Below, one piece after another: positions 44,820-56,346 of a DNA stretch of 64,000 nt. The notes under the pieces are model-generated. The model saw nothing but the letters and a program-made list of their open reading frames with translations, was not told the origin of the DNA and did not search any database. Each line of letters begins with the position of its first letter. The stretch's first letter is position 1. The stretch is from assembly GCA_963713925.1 (NCBI GenBank), contig OY970212.1, positions 704,001-768,000 of the forward strand, written 5' to 3'. The translations under genes and the position numbers were made by a program. This stretch comes from an uncultured bacterium. Lineage in GTDB: Bacteria > Babelota > Babeliae > Babelales > Vermiphilaceae.

Positions 44820-45986
44820 TTACAGAATATCTAATGGTTGCACTTCAGATTCAAAATAAATATGCAACTCTTCAGGAAGTTTTTTGTAATCGTTTCGACT
44901 GCATAATGATGAATAATCGATGCCGCAATAGGTGTTCCAGAAAAGAACGACATGATCTTTATTAATAATCCCATTATGTGCATCATCAGTGATTGCAGCA
45001 ATCGGTTTTGCACTGTAAGTACCTTCGAGTTTTATTCCCTCAAGTTCTTTGAACGTTTTTATTGCATCAACGGCTTCAGGAATGAAAAGTCCATATGCGG
45101 TCCCACAGAAGTTTTTATTGAGGATCAATTGTTCGAGAGGAAATTCATACAATGGGATCGATGCATCTACAGCATGCAAATGTTCATTTGTTTGTTTGAA
45201 TAATGTTGTGATGGTGTGTAAAAATTCATCGGGAGTATCTTCGGGCTCAACGCAGATACCGACTATCTTGGATGAAAGTCCGGCTATCGTTGAACCTAAT
45301 AGTAATCCTGCAGTGGTAGCACAGCTCCCAGTTGCCACGTAAATAAAATCAGGTTCAGGCATTTCGTTATTCTTTATTTGCTCTGCTAATTCCAGGGCAG
45401 CGTTCACAAAGCCGAGAACGCCAATTGCATTTGATCCTCCGGTTGGAATAAGGTATGCATGCGGATCATTGGCTAACATGTGCGCGGCTGCTTGTGAGCG
45501 TACTGTGTTGTTGGGGAAATATTGTATTGTTGCATCATTGGCAAGATCAAGTAAGAGATTATGTTGTACAACGCGCGAGTTTGGTTGATGTTTCAGCATG
45601 AGTATCGGTTTGAATCCAAGTTTATATGCATAGACAGCTGTCGCAAGCGCATGATTTGAACCGGCGCATCCGTAGGTGATGATAGTTTCAGCATTTTTTG
45701 AGCGTGCGTCAGCAAGTAAAAATTCTAATTTTCTTGGTTTATTGCCGCCATACAGGCGAAAGCTTTCATTCACTTGTGTTCCGGTGAGATCATCTCGCTT
45801 GATGAAAAGATGCGGCAGTTGTAAATGTGTGCCAAAATTGTTCAATCGTTCAATCGGTGTGGGTAAATTGCAGAAGGAAATGTAAGGAATCGATTCTTTG
45901 AGTGTAGGAAATCGCGTTAATAACGGTGGTTGTGCCGACACAAAAATAAATAGGTTTGTGAGCGCGAGTGAAAATAATAACTTCAT
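44820..45986 (-). CDS. PLP-dependent ACC deaminase/D-cysteine desulfhydrase family enzyme
   Basis: PTPI, IKRDD, GGNKPRKLEFL, SNHA, PTGGS, GSCATTAGL, YSAK. Confidence 0.9.
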   Translation of the reverse strand: MKLLFSLALTNLFIFVSAQPPLLTRFPTLKESIPYISFCNLPTPIERLNNFGTHLQLPHLFIKRDDLTGTQVNESFRLYGGNKPRKLEFLLADARSKNAETIITYGCAGSNHALATAVYAYKLGFKPILMLKHQPNSRVVQHNLLLDLANDATIQYFPNNTVRSQAAAHMLANDPHAYLIPTGGSNAIGVLGFVNAALELAEQIKNNEMPEPDFIYVATGSCATTAGLLLGSTIAGLSSKIVGICVEPEDTPDEFLHTITTLFKQTNEHLHAVDASIPLYEFPLEQLILNKNFCGTAYGLFIPEAVDAIKTFKELEGIKLEGTYSAKPIAAITDDAHNGIINKDHVVLFWNTYCGIDYSSLCSRNDYKKLPEELHIYFESEVQPLDIL

Positions 45987-46082
45987 TAGAACTTCTTTCC
46001 ATACTAGAAAACTTTGATTTTAACTCTTTTCTTTTTTGCTATAATAACATGCAACGCATTCTGCTCTCTGTAAAGGATTTTT

Positions 46083-46481
46083 ATGAAAAAATTATTACTG
46101 GCAACACTGATATGTTTTTACAGCGCACCGGCTTGGAATCCTTTTGAAAAAAAAGAATCAACGGCGCGTAAGGTATATAACAAAGCACGAGAATTGGTAT
46201 CACCATTTGCGCCGCTTGGTATGCAAATAGTGGGAGGAGTTGTAGTTCCTACTGTGATTGCTTGTGCCGCAAATCCCTACAAGGGGGAGCCTGCTGATTT
46301 AGTCATCGTCGGTGCTGTTTTTGCTTCTACTGCTGCAAGTACGGCATATAATGGTTATCAAGTTCATCAATCGAACAAAGGTAAAAAACAATACAATAAA
46401 TCGGCGATTGCCTACGCAGTGGCTAATGAGGTAGCTATTTTAGGTATTATGTATTGTTGGCACAAAATCAGGAATTCCTAG
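46083..46481 (+). CDS. Hypothetical membrane protein
   Basis: AAGGA RBS; signal plus three hydrophobic segments. Confidence 0.7.
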   Translation: MKKLLLATLICFYSAPAWNPFEKKESTARKVYNKARELVSPFAPLGMQIVGGVVVPTVIACAANPYKGEPADLVIVGAVFASTAASTAYNGYQVHQSNKGKKQYNKSAIAYAVANEVAILGIMYCWHKIRNS

Positions 46482-46523
46482 AATTGAAAAAAGTCTAGAA
46501 GAAGATAATTTTGTTTAGAATAC

Positions 46524-46554
46524 GAAGGGGTCGCACATGCGGCCCTTCTTTTTT
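46524..46554 (+). terminator. Rho-independent terminator
   Basis: GAAGGGGTCGC-ACAT-GCGGCCCTTC followed by TTTTTT. Confidence 0.75.
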
Positions 46555-46725
46555 AACACTTGCTTGAGTTAAGGGATCGATAAAGAATTGATGACTACGA
46601 CGACCGCATTTGGTCAAGCTCGAACTCAGCAAGGTGCCGCATGTGGAGCCGACAATAATGAGAGATAAAAATTTTCTTGTCTTTCATGTAACAAGACACA
46701 TAGAGTGAAATAAAAAAAGTACGTA

Positions 46726-48006
46726 ATGGATCTCATTATTATGATATCAAAACTCTTTAAACTGCTTATCGCAACGGCTCTTGTGACCATTGTTATTACT
46801 GTTGGCTATGTCGCTTTTTCATTGGTTACGACAAGTGATTCCATACGAGTCGGGGTACTTCATTCACAAACCGGCGTACTTGCAATGAGTGAGCTTCCGG
46901 TTATCGACGCGACGTTGCTCGCTATAGAAGAAGTGAACAAGCAGGGCGGGCTTTTAGGAAAAATAATCGAACCGATTATTGTCGATGGTGCATCGGATCC
47001 GGCTACTTTTGCGTCGTTAGCTGAGCAGTTAATCGTTGAAAAAAAAGTTGATGCGATATTTGGGTGTTGGAGTTCCTCTTGTCGAAAAGCGGTACTGCCG
47101 GTTGTAGAAAAATATAACAGCCTTCTTTTTTATCCGGTGCAATATGAAGGATTTGAAACTTCTCCCAATATTATTTACACCGGATCAACGCCTAATCAAC
47201 AGATATTGCCCGCAATGACCTGGTGCTTGAAGTATATTGGAAACCGATTTTTCTTGGCAGGTTCGGATTATGTATTTCCTCGCACGGCAAATGAAATTAT
47301 TAAAAACTTTCTCTTGTTCTTTAATGCAGAGGTTGTGGGGGAAGAGTATGTTCCTTTGAATGCCGGATATGATCGATATGAAAAAATGGTTCATGCAATT
47401 AAAGAATCCAAGCCAACAGTCATCATTAACACAATTAATGGAAGCGGCAACGCATCTTTTTTTCAGGCGTTGCGTGATGCGGGCATTACTTCCGATAAAG
47501 CTCCGACAATGTCATTTAGTATCGCGGAAGAAGAGTTGAGCATCATCGGTGGTGCATTGTTAGAAGGCGATTACGCAAGCTGGGCTTATTTTCAATCGAT
47601 TGACACTGCCAGAAATAAACAGTTTGTTGAAAAGTTTAAAAACAAATACGGTAGTCATCGCGTGGTGAGTGATCCGATGGAATCCGCCTATGTTGGTGTC
47701 GTATTATGGACAAAGGCTGTTCAAAAAGCAGGAACATCTCATATTAGAGCTGTATTGCCGTTGATTCAAAATTCAGGGGGGGATTTTCCTGAAGGTGTTA
47801 TTTATATTGATCCTGATAATAATAGTGTGTGGAAGCCATGCCGTATTGGTAAAATACGGAAAGACGGTCAATTTGATATTGTGTGGAGTTCCGGAATGGC
47901 GACTCGAACATCTCCATATCCGGTATTATATCGTAGAGAAAACTGGGATCTCTTTTTGCAAAAATTGTATGAAGGATGGAATCACAAATGGGCCTTGGAA
48001 GATTAA
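46726..48006 (+). CDS. Urea/short-chain amide binding protein (UrtA/FmdD/AmiC-type PBP1)
   Basis: VGVLHSQTG..AMSE, DGASD, FGCWSSSCRKAV.PVVE, LFYPVQYEG.E.SPN, PNQQ, GSDYVFPRTAN, NTING. Confidence 0.92.
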   Translation: MDLIIMISKLFKLLIATALVTIVITVGYVAFSLVTTSDSIRVGVLHSQTGVLAMSELPVIDATLLAIEEVNKQGGLLGKIIEPIIVDGASDPATFASLAEQLIVEKKVDAIFGCWSSSCRKAVLPVVEKYNSLLFYPVQYEGFETSPNIIYTGSTPNQQILPAMTWCLKYIGNRFFLAGSDYVFPRTANEIIKNFLLFFNAEVVGEEYVPLNAGYDRYEKMVHAIKESKPTVIINTINGSGNASFFQALRDAGITSDKAPTMSFSIAEEELSIIGGALLEGDYASWAYFQSIDTARNKQFVEKFKNKYGSHRVVSDPMESAYVGVVLWTKAVQKAGTSHIRAVLPLIQNSGGDFPEGVIYIDPDNNSVWKPCRIGKIRKDGQFDIVWSSGMATRTSPYPVLYRRENWDLFLQKLYEGWNHKWALED

Positions 48007-49961
48007 AAAAGGTTATAGAATCATATTTTTTTTCCTATATGCTCTTACTTTTTTTGTGTGGGCTTGCTGTGTTGGCTGGTTTGGCATATTACCAATTAAA
48101 GCAAATCTACATACAAGATAGTTTCTCTGTTTTGAAAAACACTCAGGATTTAGTTAAAAATGGTATGATTCATTATGTCCAAGATCAAAAAGAAACGGCT
48201 CATGAGATTGCTGAAAATAAAGAGGTTGTCGATTTTATCGTAACCCATGCCACGCGAGGAATTTCTATGGAGGGGATGGGATCCGTTGAGAAAAAGACGA
48301 CTGGTCAACGATTGAAAGAGGCGGTTGCAAAGAAGGTTTCGAATCGTTTTTTCATGCTATTTTCTTTGCGTAAAGAACTTCTTTTTAATTCCGGTAGTTC
48401 TTTTACTTCCTTCTCAGATGAAACATTTCAGAATCTTCTTGAAAATTCGTTCATATTGTTTGATCCGGTTATTTCCGATTTTATATCTGATGCACAGACT
48501 CATCAACACCATATATTTGTGGCCGCATCTGTCATGCATGAAAAGCAATTGATTGGATATTTTGTACTCGAGCTCAATCCGGCTGATTTGTACGAGGTAG
48601 TAAAACGAGGATATACTCGAATCGGAAAATCAGGTGATATTGCGATCGCCGAAAAAAAAGGTGAAGACGCTGTCATTGTTATGCCAACTCGCGCGAATCC
48701 GAATGCGGCGTTCACCATGATCGTACCGCTGGGGTCGCCAAATAGTATTGGATTGCAAGAATCAGTGAGAGGAGAAGGTGGCTCGCTGGTAGGTAAAGAT
48801 TTTTATAATAAGCTTGCTCTTTTTACGTGGGATTATATCCCTGATATCAGATGGGGCATTGTTGTCCAACAAACAATGAAAGAAATTGGTCAATTGCTCG
48901 GGGGGGTGTTCAGAGCATTTCTCATATTTCTCATGTTGTGTCTGATTGGAATTGGCGCTTGCCTGTATCGGTTTTTATCAAACACGGATTCAAGGCACTA
49001 TCTCCTGAATATGTTGCTCAGAACTGTAGCCTTTGTGACGTATCTTTTTTTTATTGTGCAAATTATATATCTCGTATTGTTTGTATATCACTCATATCAA
49101 AGAGTGCATATGGAACAGAAGCAAAGAGAGACTCAAATTTCGGTCGCATTACAAAATGCGGCACAGCGAGTTGATTATATTTTTTATCATTTGGAGGAAA
49201 TGGCTCAATTCATTGCTCGTCGCATCAGCAGCAACGGATTTACTCGAGATGATTTTGCAGAACATGTGAAAACAGTACTCACTCAGAATGCTCATGCTCA
49301 GAGCATGAGTGTGGTTGTAAAAATAGTTCATACACAATTGGGCGAAAATAAAAACTGGCAGGTAACATCATTTGCAAAAAACAAACAAGGATCAGTTGAA
49401 TCATATCGGTCAACCAGTGATGTTGATTGGATTTCGCGAGTAATCAAACGTCACTCTGGATGGGAATTGCCCTATAATGACGATCAACGGGAGTGCGTCT
49501 ATACTTTGCTAGTCTATGACAAAACTGGTGCAGAAGTGATAGCATTTGTGGAGATTTCTTGTTTGAAAGAAATGATACTACATGAGTTGGATGACGCATT
49601 ATCAGGTGAGATCAGTTTTTGCCTCATCGCATCTGACGGTAAGGTTATATATAAACAAAAAGGCATTCCGATTGAATCCTTTGAGGTAAACCCGCAGCTG
49701 CCGCATTCTTCACTACGCTTTGCGAAAATTTCACGGATTTTATGGTATGTGGGAGGAAAATCAGAAAGAAGATCTGCCTACTGGTCGTTTATTATGCCAT
49801 TTTTACTTGGATTAATGCGTTCTTTACTTGCAATCGGTGTGATCACGTGTGCATTTTCATATGGGTACAATGCTTTGCATCGAGAAAAGCCGCAACGGAG
49901 GAGAACGCTTTTTGTATTGCTTGTGGCAATAGCAGTCAATATCTTTTTGATGATGTGGTAG
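47976..49961 (+). CDS. Tandem Cache-domain membrane protein with no cytoplasmic output domain
   Basis: TM, dCache-like domain (IFVAASV..LIGYFVLE, IGKSG, GKDF..WGIVV), two TMs, second Cache-like domain (GWELPY..YT.., CLIASDG.VIY), two TMs, stop. Overlaps the upstream gene. Confidence 0.75.
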   Translation: MESQMGLGRLKKVIESYFFSYMLLLFLCGLAVLAGLAYYQLKQIYIQDSFSVLKNTQDLVKNGMIHYVQDQKETAHEIAENKEVVDFIVTHATRGISMEGMGSVEKKTTGQRLKEAVAKKVSNRFFMLFSLRKELLFNSGSSFTSFSDETFQNLLENSFILFDPVISDFISDAQTHQHHIFVAASVMHEKQLIGYFVLELNPADLYEVVKRGYTRIGKSGDIAIAEKKGEDAVIVMPTRANPNAAFTMIVPLGSPNSIGLQESVRGEGGSLVGKDFYNKLALFTWDYIPDIRWGIVVQQTMKEIGQLLGGVFRAFLIFLMLCLIGIGACLYRFLSNTDSRHYLLNMLLRTVAFVTYLFFIVQIIYLVLFVYHSYQRVHMEQKQRETQISVALQNAAQRVDYIFYHLEEMAQFIARRISSNGFTRDDFAEHVKTVLTQNAHAQSMSVVVKIVHTQLGENKNWQVTSFAKNKQGSVESYRSTSDVDWISRVIKRHSGWELPYNDDQRECVYTLLVYDKTGAEVIAFVEISCLKEMILHELDDALSGEISFCLIASDGKVIYKQKGIPIESFEVNPQLPHSSLRFAKISRILWYVGGKSERRSAYWSFIMPFLLGLMRSLLAIGVITCAFSYGYNALHREKPQRRRTLFVLLVAIAVNIFLMMW

Positions 49962-49963
49962 AT

Positions 49964-49996
49964 TACGCCCAAGCGCATGTAATGCGCTTGGGACCC
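49964..49996 (-). repeat. Palindromic element immediately after the Cache gene stop
   Basis: TACGCCCAAGCGCATGTAATGCGCTTGGGACCC. Confidence 0.75.
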
Positions 49997-50050
49997 AACA
50001 ATTTCCGTCTAGGTATAAAAACTATCGCGCGACAGGACGTGCGAAGCAAC

Positions 50051-52273
50051 TTATTCTACTTCTTGCTCCAACCATTCGTTTTCATTGATCTCAATCCACA
50101 CACGATTGCTTAATGTTCGTGTGTTCGGATTGAAGTTCATATGAATTCCTTTGTATTTAACGTCTTTAAATGTTTGAAAATGCTCAATAATCTTTTCTCC
50201 GGTCACGGGACCTTTGATTACCTTGAGCGCTTCTAAATAGAGGTTTGTTCCGATATATGATTCCAACGAGAAAATGTCGTATGGATTGTTACCCAAATCC
50301 ATTAAATTTCTAAATGCTTGGACTATTGGTAAGGTGCTGTTTGTCGGGTTTGGAACTACTTGACTGAAGATAATATTAACTCCCAAATTTTTAATAAACT
50401 TTCTAAAAACGTTGTCGCCAACAAATGAAATGCCAAAAAATTTGGTTGAAATGAGCATATCAAGACTGAGCGCTCGCATTAATGCTTCAGTTGCAAGACC
50501 GGTTGAAAATAAACCGACTGCATCGGGTTGGCCTTTTTTAATAAGATCGATTTGTCGACTGAAATCAGTTGATGTTCTGTTATAAGGCACTTCGGTCCAT
50601 TGAGAAATACCAAGCTCTTTCAAGATTTCTCGAGCTGCGGTGAGCGCTCCTTGGCCATAGGCGTCATCTTGATAAAAAAAGGCGAATTTTTTTGTCTCAT
50701 GTTGTGAAATCATGTATTTAATGAGCGTGCGTACTTCTTGTGCGTAAGAAGTACGCCAATGAATAATACTTGTTAAATCTTTTTTCCTAAATGCCGGTGA
50801 GCCGGTAACGGGGAAAATGACACTGATTTGATGTTTTTCAACTAAATCAATGTATCCCGAGAGCGAGGGGCTTCCAACGGGGAGCAAGACTGTGTCAATA
50901 TCCCGTTTTGATTTGAGAAGTTCGATATTTCTGCGGGCAATGCTCGGTTCATATTGATCATCAAGAATGATCGGACGAATACTATGACCTTTGATGCCCC
51001 CCTCTTGATTATATTGATTAACAACAGCACTCATGCATCGTTGTACGCTTTGTCCCATGTAACCGAGACTTTTGGTCAATGGCATTGTTGATCCGATGTA
51101 GTAGGGATGTTTGTCAAAAGCTGTTGGGCTATAGACTGTTTGACCGGAAACAATGCGGAACAGAGTATCTTTAAAAAAACCAACTCTATTTCTTACGTCT
51201 TGGTAAAGCAGTTGAATTGTTGCATCTTCAATCGTTTTTCCAAGGGTAATTTCCGCGAATGCATCAAAATAAAAATTGAAAAATTGTTGGTACACCGGTG
51301 TCTGAGATGAAATTAATGACCATGCAGTTGTTCCTAAATCAGGTTCTATGAAGCGGAGTCCGTTAGTTGCTGCTATTTTATCTTGTGTATAGTTGCCACC
51401 GCGCAGGATGCTCACGACCTCTTGAGTTTCTTGAACGACTTTATTTTTAGTTATTTGGAGATAATCAATAGTGTCTGGCTCTTTTGAAAAAAGATTTCCG
51501 ATGTGACTCTCATCAAAATCATAACTTGAGCGCGATTCATTTGATAATCGAATAACTTCTTTAGTTTGGTCTTTTTGATTGATATAAAGTGCTTCGGGAA
51601 GCGTATCAAAAAAATCAGACAGTGATTTTTTAAAAGCTTCTTTTTGTTTGTCAGACATTTGTAACTGTATGTTGATTTGTGTATTAAGACTGAAATCTTT
51701 CCAAAGGTCATCGCGTTCGTGTGAACCTTTGAGATAAAATACCTGATTTGGGTTGTATGCCATCAAAACGAGAACAATGAAAAGAGTTTCTAGTGAATAA
51801 GCATACCGATCAATGACATTACCCAAAAAGATAAAAGTATATCCGGGGGCGATGCGAAAATGTGAGTCGAGTATCTTTTGTTCATACAGATATTCGAGTG
51901 TTCGAAAGAGAGAATGTGCAGCGCCGAATAGATCACCCCATACAATATATTTTGAACCTTCTTTGCCGGTTATATTCACCACATAGGGCGTAAGCGCAGA
52001 ATATTTTTTTCGTTCTAATACAATCGTATCAAGCAATGTTTTGATGGTATTGATATTCCACGGTTGGGGCGCTCTCAGTTTGAGAAAGTGTAATAGTTTG
52101 TCAGATAACGAAGAAATACGTGTTCGATAAAAGGTTGCATAATCAGGATTATTCCACTCATTCGTATCACTGACAACAAGTTCAGGTAAGCTTTTTATAA
52201 AAAAGGATAGATCAATAAGATCACAGATCGTGTGGATGGGAATAAAAAGCGCCGCCAAAATTATTTTTTTCAT
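50051..52273 (-). CDS. Fusion of degenerate PPP-type metallophosphoesterase and LivJ/K-type (Venus flytrap) binding domain
   Basis: WGDLFG, LGNVIDR, LKGSHE, FFDTLP; C-terminal IGSTMPLT..NQEGGIKG..LDDQYEP, FYQDDAYG; signal peptide. Confidence 0.85.
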   Translation of the reverse strand: MKKIILAALFIPIHTICDLIDLSFFIKSLPELVVSDTNEWNNPDYATFYRTRISSLSDKLLHFLKLRAPQPWNINTIKTLLDTIVLERKKYSALTPYVVNITGKEGSKYIVWGDLFGAAHSLFRTLEYLYEQKILDSHFRIAPGYTFIFLGNVIDRYAYSLETLFIVLVLMAYNPNQVFYLKGSHERDDLWKDFSLNTQINIQLQMSDKQKEAFKKSLSDFFDTLPEALYINQKDQTKEVIRLSNESRSSYDFDESHIGNLFSKEPDTIDYLQITKNKVVQETQEVVSILRGGNYTQDKIAATNGLRFIEPDLGTTAWSLISSQTPVYQQFFNFYFDAFAEITLGKTIEDATIQLLYQDVRNRVGFFKDTLFRIVSGQTVYSPTAFDKHPYYIGSTMPLTKSLGYMGQSVQRCMSAVVNQYNQEGGIKGHSIRPIILDDQYEPSIARRNIELLKSKRDIDTVLLPVGSPSLSGYIDLVEKHQISVIFPVTGSPAFRKKDLTSIIHWRTSYAQEVRTLIKYMISQHETKKFAFFYQDDAYGQGALTAAREILKELGISQWTEVPYNRTSTDFSRQIDLIKKGQPDAVGLFSTGLATEALMRALSLDMLISTKFFGISFVGDNVFRKFIKNLGVNIIFSQVVPNPTNSTLPIVQAFRNLMDLGNNPYDIFSLESYIGTNLYLEALKVIKGPVTGEKIIEHFQTFKDVKYKGIHMNFNPNTRTLSNRVWIEINENEWLEQEVE

Positions 52274-52294
52274 ATGAATAAACCTTTTTTATTA

Positions 52295-52400
52295 TACCCA
52301 AACTTCGCTTCGCTCCGCTCGGGGCCCGTTATCGGGGTCCCCATGCTTTAGCGTGGGGTAATTCATTACACCCAAGCTCATTAACTTCGCTTGGGACCCC
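52295..52400. repeat. Three palindromic elements between the channel gene and the fusion gene
   Basis: 52295-52327 reverse; 52334-52360 forward (GGGGTCCCCATGC..GCGTGGGGTA); 52367-52400 reverse. Confidence 0.8.
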
Positions 52401-53435
52401 TTACTGGCCCCAAAAAAACAGTAAATACACGGATACTGCAATAACAAATAGATGAAATAACACAACAATGACGTTTTTCCACCAATAATTAATTTTGCTC
52501 AACGTTATACTAAAAAAGAAAATGAAGAGTGATACCGTCAAAATAAGAAAGAACACATAGTCGGATAACATGAAATATCCAACTTTCGGCGAGAGATTTT
52601 CAATAACAAATCGGTACGCAAGTAGTGCAGTCACGCCGCCTGTTGAAATTGATATAACGGAAGGTGAACCCGGAGGGAGAGAAAAAATGAATAATGATAT
52701 GAAAAATATTGCGAGTAGGGGAAGCATGATCGTAACGGCGTATCGATTTCCCAATCGTTCAAAATCAGCTGAAAAAAGAACAGCAGGGTCAGCAACGTTT
52801 TTTTGTATCGTTTCACTGTCTTTAATCGCCTCTATATAACCGGTTTTGACCTTTTTTTTGACCAATTGCCACCCAAGGAGTTGAATGGATGAGTCTTTCA
52901 GATCAAAATCGGCAACGGAGGAGATAAATGATGCTTCATTTGGCTGAAGGCTTGAAATGATGACACCGATATAGACGCGATGGTCGTCAAAAGGGAAAAA
53001 ACGATATTCCATAGCGCTTTTAAACTGCACTTTAACATCGTAGCGCACCCAAAGACGAGAATTGACGATTTGAGTATATGGTTTTGATTTTTCTACATGT
53101 TCCGCATTTTGAAATTTGAATTGATTGAGCATATCTACTTTGATAAAATCCGGGTCACATTCAAAAGTGATAATTCCTGAAAAAGCAAACTCATTTTTTA
53201 CCGGATCAAAAGCAGAAAAATCACTGATGAGGAGGCTCACATTAACCTGGGCTGGAGTTCCGCCGAACGCAGCGAGTTTCTTTGGGGTCATTTGTACGAG
53301 CGCCGGAGGAGTGTCACCTGTGTAAAAGCGTTTTGAGATCTTGTAAACGCAAAATGCAAGTATCGAAGTTGTGATTATCATCATGAAACATTGAACGAAT
53401 AAACTGACCGGTTTTTCGTAGGTAGTTGTTGTCAT
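52401..53435 (-). CDS. Prokaryotic pentameric ligand-gated ion channel (GLIC/ELIC-like)
   Basis: PAQVNVSLLI..FD...EF beta1-2, MEYRFFPFDDH Pro-loop, LLGW, pre-M1 FER, M1 IMLP, M2-M3 SPKVGY, four TMs plus an N-terminal anchor. Confidence 0.88.
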   Translation of the reverse strand: MTTTTYEKPVSLFVQCFMMIITTSILAFCVYKISKRFYTGDTPPALVQMTPKKLAAFGGTPAQVNVSLLISDFSAFDPVKNEFAFSGIITFECDPDFIKVDMLNQFKFQNAEHVEKSKPYTQIVNSRLWVRYDVKVQFKSAMEYRFFPFDDHRVYIGVIISSLQPNEASFISSVADFDLKDSSIQLLGWQLVKKKVKTGYIEAIKDSETIQKNVADPAVLFSADFERLGNRYAVTIMLPLLAIFFISLFIFSLPPGSPSVISISTGGVTALLAYRFVIENLSPKVGYFMLSDYVFFLILTVSLFIFFFSITLSKINYWWKNVIVVLFHLFVIAVSVYLLFFWGQ

Positions 53436-53535
53436 TGAAAAAGTTCCTCTTCCTTTTTTTCTTTACAATACCATCGCCTTTTTGCAAGCATAAAGTCAAT
53501 AAAAAAAGGAATGCGTGTTAAAAAGGGATCATCTC

Positions 53536-54762
53536 ATGGCAAAAACATTAATATCGGTAGATTTAACCAAATCGCCGGCTCAACAACCAACTCCGTTGCA
53601 CAATCGCTGGCATCCCGATATTCCCGCAGTTGTATCAGTGAAACCGGGCGAAACATTTCGATTGGAATGCCTTGATTGGACAGGGGGACAGATAAAGAAT
53701 GATGATGACGCGCACGATGTTCATGCCGTTGACTTAAGCCAAGTACACTATTTGAGTGGCCCGGTGGCAGTCAGCAGTGCCGAGCCGGGTGATTTGTTGG
53801 TTGTCGATATTATCGATCTCGGGCCATTGCCCGGCCATGAATGGGGATACACCGGCATTTTTGCAAAAAGGAATGGTGGCGGATTTTTGGATGAATATTT
53901 TCCCGATGCCCACAAAGCAATCTGGGATCTTAAAAATGGTTATGCATCGTCGCGCCATATTCATGGGGTGAACTTTAAAGTAATGTCGCATCCGGGGATT
54001 GTCGGTGTTGCTCCGTCACACAAATTATTGAACGAATGGAGCAAGCGAGAAGCGGAATTGGTGAAACAATATGTGCATCGCGTTCCTCCTGTTGCATGGC
54101 TGCCGGAGGCCAAAGGAGCACTTGTTGGATTGCTGAAGGGAGCCGATGCTGAACGCGTTGCTCGCGAAGGGGCGCGCACGGTGCCCGGCCGTGAAAACGG
54201 TGGAAACACTGACGTTATGACCAAAACCCGTGGTACGCGACTCTATTTTCCCGTGCATGTGCATGAGGCGCTTCTTTCCGTGGGCGATTTGCATTATTCA
54301 CAAGGTGATGGAGAAATATCGTTTTGTGGTGGAATTGAAATGGCTGGGTGGATTGAGCTAAAAGTTGATCTGATTAAAAACGGTGCGCAAGCCTATAATC
54401 TCAAACAAGGAATGTTTACATTCGGAAAAACGGCATTCCCGCAATATCCGGAATATCTGGCATTTGAAGGGTTGTCGTTAGATAAAGAGGGCAGACAACA
54501 TTATATCGATGCGACATTGGCCTACCGGCAAGCGTGTTTGCATGCGATCGATTATCTCACTCAGTTCGGCTACACGCGTGAACAGGCGTACCTTTTGTTA
54601 AGCGCTGCGCCAGTTGAAGGCCGCTTTAGCGCAGTTGTCGATTCACCGAACGCATTTGCAACCCTTGCTATGCCGACTGGTATGTTTGAATTTGATATTC
54701 AGCTTTCTGCAAAAGGCCCCGTTCGTGCTAAACGTGGCAATGTGTGCGGTGTGTGTAAGTAA
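53536..54762 (+). CDS. fmdA: Formamidase (acetamidase/formamidase family)
   Basis: HNRWHPDIP, ECLDWTGGQI, VHYLSGP, ENGGN.D, GDLHYSQGDGEISFCG. Confidence 0.93.
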   Translation: MAKTLISVDLTKSPAQQPTPLHNRWHPDIPAVVSVKPGETFRLECLDWTGGQIKNDDDAHDVHAVDLSQVHYLSGPVAVSSAEPGDLLVVDIIDLGPLPGHEWGYTGIFAKRNGGGFLDEYFPDAHKAIWDLKNGYASSRHIHGVNFKVMSHPGIVGVAPSHKLLNEWSKREAELVKQYVHRVPPVAWLPEAKGALVGLLKGADAERVAREGARTVPGRENGGNTDVMTKTRGTRLYFPVHVHEALLSVGDLHYSQGDGEISFCGGIEMAGWIELKVDLIKNGAQAYNLKQGMFTFGKTAFPQYPEYLAFEGLSLDKEGRQHYIDATLAYRQACLHAIDYLTQFGYTREQAYLLLSAAPVEGRFSAVVDSPNAFATLAMPTGMFEFDIQLSAKGPVRAKRGNVCGVCK

Positions 54763-54768
54763 AAGATA

Positions 54769-54798
54769 TATAGGGCCGTATAAATCAGGCCCTATATA
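54769..54798. terminator. Bidirectional terminator-like hairpin
   Basis: TATAGGGCC-GTATAAATCA-GGCCCTATA. Confidence 0.6.
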
Positions 54799-54827
54799 AT
54801 TTAATCAGACTGATATTAGAAGATTAT

Positions 54828-55409
54828 TCAGTCGGTTTTCTTGATGTTTGATTTAGTGGTATCGGCAAGGGCTTTTATTTCCCGCATGAGCTGTCGCGAC
54901 TCTTCCGCATCTTGCGCTGCCTTTTGCAGACGGGTGAGACACTCTTGGAATTCGCGCTTATCGTGCTCATTGGCAGCAACATAACTCATATAACCTATCG
55001 ATAAAGCCGTAATTGCCATGATATATTTTTTGTTGTCAGTTCTTCCTGTCGAGGAAGGCACATCAGCTTCCATACGAGAAAGTGCATTGTTATCAACGAG
55101 GGCAACACTCGCACCGGCTACTATTATACATGTAAGTCGAGCTTTTGTTTGTGTTTCACCAAAATAAGAAGACAGTCCAAAACCTGCTCCTGTAATAATT
55201 AGCTGAAGAAGTTCAGGTCGATTGCGATAGCAAAAATTACTGAGGTTTTTTGCACCGGTATTAATGGATTTTTTAATATCAATGTTCGGTGTGAATAGTA
55301 TTTTAATGTAGTGACCATATGCCGGTTGTTTTTGATTGGATTGTTGCAAATCAATTTCAGCGTGTAAAATTGAACTCATGCAGAGCAGTACCGGTAATAC
55401 ATATTTCAT
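54828..55409 (-). CDS. Hypothetical protein with TM segments and C-terminal coiled coil
   Basis: Signal ...ILHA|E; hydrophobic segments; charged helical tail. Confidence 0.7.
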   Translation of the reverse strand: MKYVLPVLLCMSSILHAEIDLQQSNQKQPAYGHYIKILFTPNIDIKKSINTGAKNLSNFCYRNRPELLQLIITGAGFGLSSYFGETQTKARLTCIIVAGASVALVDNNALSRMEADVPSSTGRTDNKKYIMAITALSIGYMSYVAANEHDKREFQECLTRLQKAAQDAEESRQLMREIKALADTTKSNIKKTD

Positions 55410-55572
55410 GAAAAATCCTTATAGCGCATGATACATTTTGTAATCAACGTAGATAATTTTATCATTTTTAATCAAAAAGAGAATTGAAAATTAACAAACG
55501 GATTATGATCTGATGATAATTCTTTTTAATTCCCAAAATAAACGAAGGGTCGTATCAAGCGACCTTTTTCTC

Positions 55573-56346
55573 CTATTCTCCAACTGCTTGTGTGAAATGA
55601 CTCGTAAATGTATCAAACTCAAGATTCAAATCTTTACCATGTTTTTCATACCATGCATTGAGTGAGACCGGAAAGTGCGGTTTTGCTAATGTATAAAGCG
55701 CTTGCGCATATCTTCTGATTTCAAACTGCGCGCCGGCATGCAAGCGCAAACGCATGAAATGCATGAGCGAATGCAAATTGCAGGTGAAAATAAATTGAGT
55801 GTAGGTTGCAGTGGGGAGTATACCGCGCGCAATTTCCCGGCCGATGCCGGCTTCAAGCAACTGCTCATACGCTTTAACAGCGGCGTTTAATGCTTCTTTA
55901 TATGCGGCTGTTAGTTCTGCATCATCAAAAGATCCGATAGAAGCTTGTTTATTTTTGGTATCTTGTGAACGCCATTTTGGTGGGATATAAAATTCAAGTG
56001 GAGCTTTTACATAGCGATAGCTGATCTCATTATATGAATTCATGCGATGGCGCATCCATTGGCGTGCAACAAATAACGGACATTTAATGCGAAATGAAAA
56101 TTGATTGTGTTCAAACGGGCTCGTGTGCTCATGATCCATTAAAAACTTGATCAGTGTTGCATCTCGAGGGGAAATTTCAGTGCTCACTTTTCCGTAAGAA
56201 ACGCGTGCGGCATTCACGACATCAATATCAGATCCGGAAACACGGACCAATTCAACGGAGCTAATACCGTCGCCGAGTGGATCAAGCAGTATGTGAGGTA
56301 CAGAATTAACGTTAGCATTTTGCGGGGTTGTAACCGAATCAAGCAT
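55573..56346 (-). CDS. thyX: FAD-dependent thymidylate synthase
   Basis: AARVSY, HTSPFEH, RQWMRHR..SYNEIS.RY, REIARG.LP, AQFEIR. Confidence 0.97.
   Translation of the reverse strand: MLDSVTTPQNANVNSVPHILLDPLGDGISSVELVRVSGSDIDVVNAARVSYGKVSTEISPRDATLIKFLMDHEHTSPFEHNQFSFRIKCPLFVARQWMRHRMNSYNEISYRYVKAPLEFYIPPKWRSQDTKNKQASIGSFDDAELTAAYKEALNAAVKAYEQLLEAGIGREIARGILPTATYTQFIFTCNLHSLMHFMRLRLHAGAQFEIRRYAQALYTLAKPHFPVSLNAWYEKHGKDLNLEFDTFTSHFTQAVGE

Follow-up and report, generated by a model that had tools for sequence, protein, structure and literature searches.

A stand-alone ligand-gated ion channel with a Venus-flytrap partner and a channel-less Cache sensor: candidate back-to-back modules in a Vermiphilaceae genome

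We describe a gene cluster in a 64,000-nucleotide stretch of DNA from an uncultured bacterium of the Vermiphilaceae (Babelota; assembly GCA_963713925.1, contig OY970212.1, positions 704,001 to 768,000 of the forward strand). This whole stretch is called the window below, and coordinates given without a contig or locus name are counted from its first letter. The cluster encodes a UrtA/AmiC-family binder, a tandem-dCache membrane protein, a protein that joins a PPP-phosphatase-like domain to a Venus-flytrap (VFT) domain (hereafter PPP-VFT), a pentameric ligand-gated ion channel (pLGIC) and the formamidase FmdA. While a preliminary description took all five genes for one amide-sensing system, the reading that we favour, and to which we give about even confidence, is that two separately conserved Dependentiae sensor-channel modules lie here back to back and that the VFT protein gates the pLGIC in trans. 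Module A, made up of the pLGIC and PPP-VFT, probably works as one functional unit; synteny and gene fusions are the observations behind this view, and the mechanism is our extrapolation from them. Module B, made up of the binder and the Cache protein, is by sequence comparison orthologous to a gene pair whose second member in relatives terminates in a fused pLGIC; that channel part is missing here. An open reading frame (ORF) lies at each of the five positions given below, and the genes, their order and the names first given to them stand, as coordinates, strands, family searches and AlphaFold2 (AF2)/Foldseek results agree.

The stand-alone channel and its periplasmic partner

The pLGIC gene (52401-53435, minus strand) encodes 344 amino acids (aa) laid out as an N-terminal transmembrane (TM) helix, a beta-sandwich extracellular domain with an FPFD Pro-loop, and the segments M1-M4. 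It has no Pfam match, Neur_chan at E 0.01 included, and its NCBIfam match to LGIC_1 (E 3.6e-6, 26.6 bits) falls below the cut-off of 500. The solved channel sTeLIC matches it at E 1e-4, with the FPFD Pro-loop, the arginine before M1 and the M2-M3 motif 'P..GY' aligned. Its AF2 model, with a predicted local distance difference test (pLDDT) score of 90.3, places strands at residues 62-227 and helices at 231-342, and the PDB matches listed for that model by Foldseek are all pLGICs, with E down to 1e-17. Across 45 homologues, F147 and P148 of the FPFD motif (residues 146-149) never vary, and conservation extends to R231, P283 and Y287; M2 has no conserved charged ring at the inner mouth. The named ones among 74 homologues all belong to Dependentiae, TM6 or Babeliales, and none of the 74 carries a precomputed Pfam domain. 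Going by such names, the source of the window is a member of Dependentiae (TM6, Babeliales/Babeliaceae). Two of the pLGIC homologues, P0006 and P0007, share 78% and 58% identity with it. Judged by modelled fold and by motifs, the protein is a very divergent pLGIC, too divergent for current family models.

Some related channel genes have irregular reading frames or layouts. The relative's pLGIC most like that of the window (G018:C44:44641-45654, seen in loci L002 and L013) has one in-frame TAG within the match, despite which the ORF call gives a 348-aa frame at L013:9509-10555. At L025:5886-7571 (genome G030) a 561-aa protein carries about eight extra N-terminal TM segments ahead of its pLGIC core, and at L090:8030-9159 the pLGIC is split into two ORFs, by decay or by assembly error.

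The neighbourhood of the channel was compared across 19 stretches of about 20 kb around pLGIC matches from 18 relatives (a fragmentary match, G001:C18, was left out) and across 37 further loci from a peptide-pattern scan with one genome per species, the named records of which were all Dependentiae, TM6 or Babeliales and the rest unclassified bins. Removal of the duplicates L072 (= L019) and L074 (= L015) left 54 loci besides the window, 55 with it, whose gene content was read by domain-wise BLAST of all ORFs of at least 120 aa.

The partner gene, PPP-VFT (50051-52273, minus strand, 740 aa), begins 127 bp downstream of the pLGIC gene on the same strand. Its product has a signal-peptide-like N-terminus, a PPP-like domain at about residues 100-380 and a type-I periplasmic-binding VFT domain at about 391-725; in Pfam these correspond to Metallophos (22.8 bits, cut-off 21.5) and Peripla_BP_6 (142 bits). 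The nearest solved relatives of the VFT domain are LIVBP-like, with 4kv7 matching at E 1.9e-25. At 50 of the 54 other loci the channel is either fused to a PPP and/or VFT gene or has one on its own strand no more than 300 bp away. The four loci without this pairing are L023 and L026, where the channel stands alone, L029, which is a 4.5-kb contig, and L091, where the channel is cut at a contig end and PPP-VFT starts 12 bp past the match. The usual order is pLGIC followed by PPP-VFT, and six loci (L027, L028, L030, L084, L086 and L088) have the order VFT, pLGIC, PPP. Extra VFT domains or PPP-VFT paralogues are common (e.g., L014, L016, L019 and L065), so that VFT domains outnumber channels at several loci such as L014 and L065. 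We refer to the stand-alone channel with a PPP-VFT partner as type A.

Genome G015 goes further and encodes two tandem single-chain pLGIC-VFT fusions of 767 and 815 aa, in which Peripla_BP_6 follows M4. This position puts the VFT domain on the periplasmic side, as does the signal peptide of the stand-alone PPP-VFT form. Taken together, the adjacency or fusion at 50 of 54 loci and the G015 fusions make the earlier proposal that sensor proteins feed the channel in trans well backed for PPP-VFT. The neighbourhoods do not support it for the other two sensors of the cluster, as UrtA-like or tandem-Cache genes stand beside a type-A channel at none of these 54. An apparent fusion of 1118 aa in G069 was not counted, because a TGA stop divides it into two in-frame genes.

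The PPP-like domain matches PP5, calcineurin and PP1 in the PDB at E 1e-5, and an ESM Atlas search with it returned only Metallophos clusters (score 0.85), which we take at the level of a lead. It reads GDLFG, GNVIDRY and GSHE where the family motifs are GDxHG, GDxxDRG and GNHE, keeping two of the five catalytic residues, and given these degenerate motifs the domain is predicted to be inactive as a phosphatase in the window protein. In a survey of 62 PPP-like domains (that of the window and 61 from the loci, restricted to matches covering the motif region), all five key residues were kept in three, four in 12 and none in 20. Two further observations concern this family: at L062:8026-11265 the PPP-VFT gene lies in four short pieces, through decay or assembly error, and at L013:12871-14751 (minus strand; relative G018) a 626-aa Metallophos protein (53.6 bits), a better-preserved phosphoesterase, is encoded convergently with PPP-VFT.

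The UrtA-like binder and the channel-less Cache protein

The binder gene (46726-48006, plus strand) encodes 426 aa with one N-terminal TM helix. The protein matches Peripla_BP_5 at E 6e-146, solved UrtA structures at E 1e-90 to 1e-94 and AmiC at 3e-62, and it scores 458.6 bits against TIGR03407 (UrtA), below the cut-off of 492.75. Urea or short amides are the ligands of UrtA and AmiC relatives. The genome is a single contig of 1.32 Mb, 95.75% complete, and HisKA, MCPsignal, GGDEF, Urease_alpha and BPD_transp_2 gave 0 matches each in the whole of it, while each of these searches found matches in 5 to 12 of 14 control genomes. The absence of a urtB/C-type permease, urease, HisKA, methyl-accepting chemotaxis protein (MCP) or GGDEF gene, first noted for the cluster as a lack of classical transport or output partners, thus holds genome-wide. 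A cognate urtBCDE set elsewhere does not account for the binder either, as BPD_transp_2, matched in 12 of the 14 control genomes, has no match in this one. Judging from its sequence, the binder is a membrane-tethered member of the UrtA/AmiC fold family that is not a transporter component in this genome.

The second gene of module B (47976-49961, plus strand, 661 aa) overlaps the binder gene by 31 nt, and its product has no Pfam or NCBIfam family match. Five TM segments and two periplasmic modules can be mapped along it, in the order TM, dCache, TM-TM, Cache module, TM-TM. Its AF2 model (pLDDT 77.6) matches dCache sensor domains of chemoreceptors and kinases, including PscC, Mlp24, Tlp3 and PctA, at E 6.5e-9 and below and with target TM-scores of 0.62-0.72; the second Cache module is less certain, as pLDDT dips there.

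Of 40 relatives, 9 have a strong UrtA-like match, and no type-A channel was found in most of these 9. The binder orthologues are 44-49% identical to that of the window in eight relatives of the same family and 30% identical in the ninth (G035). Directly downstream of the UrtA-like gene, and usually overlapping it, all nine relative loci have a gene for a protein of 906-1074 aa, the N-terminal part of which is homologous to the 661-aa protein, and six of the nine proteins exceed the dCache_1 cut-off. Over the 340 aa that these proteins have in addition at the C-terminus, the consensus shows a YPFD motif and four helices, and the corresponding profile aligns with the type-A channel family at an hhalign probability of 97.2% (E 3.6e-11) and with GLIC at E 1e-9. 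The fused channel is only about 16% identical to the type-A channel of the window. A Cache homologue is present in 32 of the 79 other genomes of the GTDB family, and 28 of these 32 have it in an open frame of 989-1132 aa.

The 661-aa protein corresponds to the N-terminal two thirds of these Cache-Cache-pLGIC fusions of about 1000 aa and stops after the fifth TM segment, where the channel part would follow. This form is not a one-off truncation, because P0080, a 636-aa protein from another source (a 4.2-kb contig), has the same ends and aligns with it from end to end at 49% identity with the TM segments conserved. Scans of metagenomes found no relatives of the channel-less Cache protein. On these alignments the 661-aa protein is a channel-less derivative of the Dependentiae Cache-Cache-pLGIC partner of the UrtA-like binder. 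The earlier proposal that the Cache protein feeds the stand-alone channel is not supported by its counterparts in relatives, which carry a fused channel of a different pLGIC type.

The profile of that fused channel has one match in this genome (G000:C1:1025918-1026847, E 6.6e-66), which leads to a second pLGIC gene about 270 kb from the cluster (G000:C1:1024682-1026850, plus strand, equal to L113:265-2433). Its 722-aa product consists of a TM segment, one Cache module, a TM-TM hairpin and a pLGIC core, and can be aligned to the fusions of about 1000 aa over their second Cache module and channel. Orthologues of 680-754 aa occur in six relatives, in none of which a UrtA-like gene was found, and no binder gene lies beside the 722-aa gene itself. 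Current Pfam models fail to recognise any of the three channels: type A, the Cache-Cache-fused channel with its UrtA-like partner, which we call type B, and the single-Cache-fused channel, which we call type C. Besides types A and C, this genome has a type-B sensor without its channel. The 722-aa gene sits just downstream of genes for ATP synthase subunits a and c, the latter unusually long at 316 aa with three ATP-synt_C stretches (L114:7470-8420, G000:C1:1023469-1024419). A 45-residue, 71%-identical copy of the 722-aa C-terminus lies at G000:C1:1028625-1028759, as from a tandem duplication.

These comparisons also allow a reading in which module B has nothing to do with the neighbouring channel, which we regard as unlikely but as the strongest of the alternatives. 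The UrtA-like/Cache pair would then serve the distant 722-aa pLGIC, or be a remnant nearing loss, and its position next to module A would be a chance rearrangement. The alignment of the 722-aa protein with the fusions speaks for it, as does the distribution of the types: genomes that match the 722-aa type strongly are without a UrtA-like gene, and the 722-aa type is absent where the type of about 1000 aa occurs, which makes the present genome an odd hybrid. Gene order at locus L020, taken up below, points in the same direction by suggesting that module B was inserted here. On the other hand, the channel-less form argues against decay, since it recurs in P0080 at 49% identity with matching ends and conserved TM segments. 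The binder, too, is as conserved as those of relatives (44-49%, compared with 42-48% among the relatives themselves).

Formamidase and the neighbouring PLP-dependent enzyme

The fmdA gene (53515-54762, plus strand, 415 aa) is divergent from the pLGIC gene across a gap of 79 bp. Its product exceeds the cut-off of the NCBIfam equivalog NF045496 (612 bits against 500; residues 10-407 align with profile positions 2-398 of 407) and matches Pfam FmdA_AmdA at E 9e-166. FmdA is rare, being present in 3 of 41 genomes, this one included, and in the flanks of FmdA fetched from the other two (G007 and G016) none of the other 14 window proteins was matched. At six of the 54 other loci, FmdA and the pLGIC/PPP-VFT pair are no more than 7 kb apart. 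FmdA follows PPP-VFT immediately and on its strand in L069, L081, L089 and L092, is found on the opposite strand at a distance of 1.8 kb in L073, and lies 5 kb upstream in L079. On a tree of 71 VFT domains, which omits the truncated VFT of L079 and matches with fewer than 280 aligned residues, the FmdA label takes three state changes to explain, L089 is placed well apart from the others, and none of 500 label shuffles was as clustered. The linkage of formamidase to the pLGIC/PPP-VFT pair is real but partial. The place first given to formamidase within the system accordingly stands in part: it recurs beside such pairs at at least three places in the VFT tree, and most pairs do without it. A link to amides is plausible but weak.

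A possible accessory is the gene for a pyridoxal phosphate (PLP)-dependent enzyme (44820-45986, minus strand, 388 aa, Pfam PALP), which belongs to the family of D-cysteine desulfhydrase, ACC deaminase and CuyA (cysteate sulfo-lyase), with all NCBIfam matches below their cut-offs. In L020 a homologue lies 30 bp beyond the downstream end of PPP-VFT, and L061 has another in the vicinity. The minus-strand order in the window is pLGIC, PPP-VFT and, beyond the plus-strand genes of module B, the PLP-dependent enzyme, which equals the order in L020 without the insert. This agreement suggests that module B was inserted between the PPP-VFT gene and the PLP-enzyme gene.

Whether all five genes nevertheless form a single amide-sensing ionotropic system, in which binder, Cache protein and VFT protein feed the pLGIC in trans and formamidase removes the signal, has to be judged from the same data, and we consider it quite improbable. 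The similarity of the 426-aa binder to UrtA and AmiC would fit it, and so would the recurrence of FmdA beside type-A pairs. Moreover, the only UrtA/AmiC-family binder and the only formamidase of the genome lie within 5.5 kb, around its only type-A pLGIC, and a Cache protein that has lost its channel yet stays conserved needs some partner. Set against this is the neighbourhood comparison, which finds UrtA-like and Cache genes unlinked from the stand-alone pLGIC at every other locus, contrary to the original grouping of the five genes into one module. Of the 41 genomes, this is the only one with both a UrtA-like gene and FmdA, the native partner of the Cache sensor is a pLGIC of a different type, and a channel of the Cache-fused lineage is present elsewhere in this very genome. 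The two modules also lie on opposite strands and are convergent.

A proposed mechanism and its competitors

In the arrangement of two independent modules that we favour, the secreted VFT protein of module A would bind a small periplasmic solute and, once loaded, dock on the extracellular domain of the pLGIC and gate ion flow. The PPP-like domain, if inactive as predicted, could serve as a scaffold, and the multiple VFT paralogues at many loci could be alternative sensors for one channel. In the minority of lineages that have a formamidase here, including this one, the solute or the ions may relate to the conversion of formamide to formate and ammonium. The channel-less Cache sensor of module B would act in trans on one of the two pLGICs of the genome, or might have another output.

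A number of observations weigh against this proposal. The 54 loci come from related genomes and are not independent samples. AmiC and UrtA are not among the 20 PDB matches of the VFT domain at E <= 0.001, so nothing in the VFT sequence points to an amide ligand. The PPP-like domain may be active in some lineages, as 15 of the 62 surveyed domains keep four or five catalytic residues. As for formamidase, FmdA is absent from the surroundings of 48 of the 54 pairs; in G016 it lies on a contig other than that of the pLGIC pair, and in G007, which also has it, no type-A pLGIC was found. Finally, at about 20 of 55 loci a putative outer-membrane beta-barrel gene is an immediate neighbour of the channel, which fits an uptake route as well as a sensor.

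This last point leads to a transport reading of module A, in which a binder-gated pore, in some cases together with an outer-membrane barrel, would import formamide or another small solute, or export ammonium or formate, for a cytoplasmic formamidase or deaminase, by analogy with UreI/AmiS channels. The barrel genes lie directly beside the channel at 15 loci, with five more for a second family, and encode unannotated proteins of 440-540 aa that, like outer-membrane beta-barrels, have a signal peptide and end in Phe (for example L060:5548-6867, L064:5671-6912, L065:5388-6896, L015:9341-10717 and L019:9356-10762). Ammonia-releasing enzymes recur downstream, namely FmdA at 6 of 54 loci and a member of the PLP deaminase family in L020, L061 and the window, and the genome is without a LivH/UrtB-type permease. 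Nonetheless, most pairs have neither enzyme nearby, no such barrel gene is present in the window, and the barrel assignment rests on end motifs and on Pfam searches that gave either no match or a weak one to DcaP (20.8 bits, below cut-off). To our knowledge, no pLGIC is known as a nutrient transporter, and we think a transport role very unlikely. Even further from what we would expect is a joint arrangement, in which the Cache sensor that shed its channel, the tethered UrtA-type binder and the VFT protein together gate the stand-alone pLGIC as a multi-input, amide-responsive receptor wired to formamidase; if true, it would mean that bacterial pLGICs accept exchangeable, non-covalent sensor subunits.

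Relation to known systems and significance

Associations of bacterial pLGICs with binding domains have a precedent. Tasneem, Iyer, Jakobsson and Aravind (2005; PMC549065) predicted bacterial pLGICs with N-terminal fusions to type-I periplasmic-binding proteins (PBP-I) or to MCP-N and Cache domains, as well as operons that pair pLGICs with stand-alone PBP-II or Cache genes, and proposed that the binders cooperate with the channel. The systems described here likewise combine a pLGIC core with periplasmic small-molecule-binding domains, fused or in the same operon. They differ in that the partner of the type-A channel is a stand-alone PBP-I joined to a degenerate PPP domain (the word 'phosphatase' is absent from the 2005 paper), in that the VFT domain of the Dependentiae proteins is C-terminal to M4 where it is fused, and in that the Dependentiae Cache fusions have TM hairpins between their modules and a dedicated, tethered UrtA-like binder.

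The window channel shares its fold with GLIC, ELIC, sTeLIC and DeCLIC (Foldseek E about 1e-16, TM-score 0.6-0.7), whereas its identity to solved prokaryotic pLGICs is 14-17% and it has an extra N-terminal TM helix and a conserved protein partner. Work on DeCLIC reports that its N-terminal domain is the only accessory domain to have been characterised; this domain is fused and is not a periplasmic-binding protein, unlike the partner of the window channel. In sequence, the 426-aa binder is close to solved UrtA and AmiC, which are known from the UrtABCDE urea ATP-binding cassette transporter and as the amide sensor of the Pseudomonas aeruginosa amidase operon, respectively. Unlike UrtA, it is membrane-tethered, scores below the UrtA cut-off and comes without a UrtB/C-type permease, and its conserved neighbour in relatives is a Cache-pLGIC. 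UreI/AmiS channels are encoded in urease and amidase operons. The window channel resembles them in that its gene adjoins that of an amide-hydrolysing, ammonia-producing enzyme, and differs in belonging to an unrelated protein family and in having the link to FmdA at only 7 of 55 loci.

What is new, then, is the back-to-back placement of two modules, the channel-less sensor and the formamidase gene divergent from the channel gene; pLGIC-binder operons and Cache fusions were already predicted in 2005. In a literature search that did not cover most subscription journals, no paper came up that links Dependentiae to ligand-gated ion channels or to formamidase, and none on a pseudophosphatase-PBP partner or on the gene neighbourhoods of bacterial pLGICs.

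The interest of these systems reaches beyond a single gene cluster. pLGICs are the receptors of fast synaptic transmission, yet little is known of what their bacterial relatives do in the cell or which natural ligands they respond to. A phylum with reduced genomes keeps several pLGIC types, each with a dedicated periplasmic binder, which, together with the lack of a histidine kinase, MCP or cyclase in this genome, suggests that ion flux is a main output of these cells, for signalling or uptake. Module A spans the phylum while being invisible to current domain models, and its channel and VFT partner offer a defined pair for asking whether a binding protein gates a pLGIC in trans. In glutamate receptors, gating is by fused VFT domains. 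The channel-less Cache sensor could likewise be used to probe how modular the coupling of sensors and channels is, and the link to formamidase nominates a small set of candidate ligands.

Sequencing reads and transcription signals

Short pieces identical to the window occur in two DNA sequencing runs of one study, and no RNA run is among those listed as containing it. One of them spans the gap between the pLGIC and PPP-VFT genes, and among the identical pieces listed none spans the junction of the two modules (49961-50051). A scan of 45900-55600 for promoters and terminators gave counts no higher than those in shuffled sequence. The only convincing terminator-like site in this interval is a GC-rich hairpin of 9 bp at 46526-46547 (plus strand), which is followed by a run of T and sits between a 132-aa ORF (46083-46481) and the binder gene.

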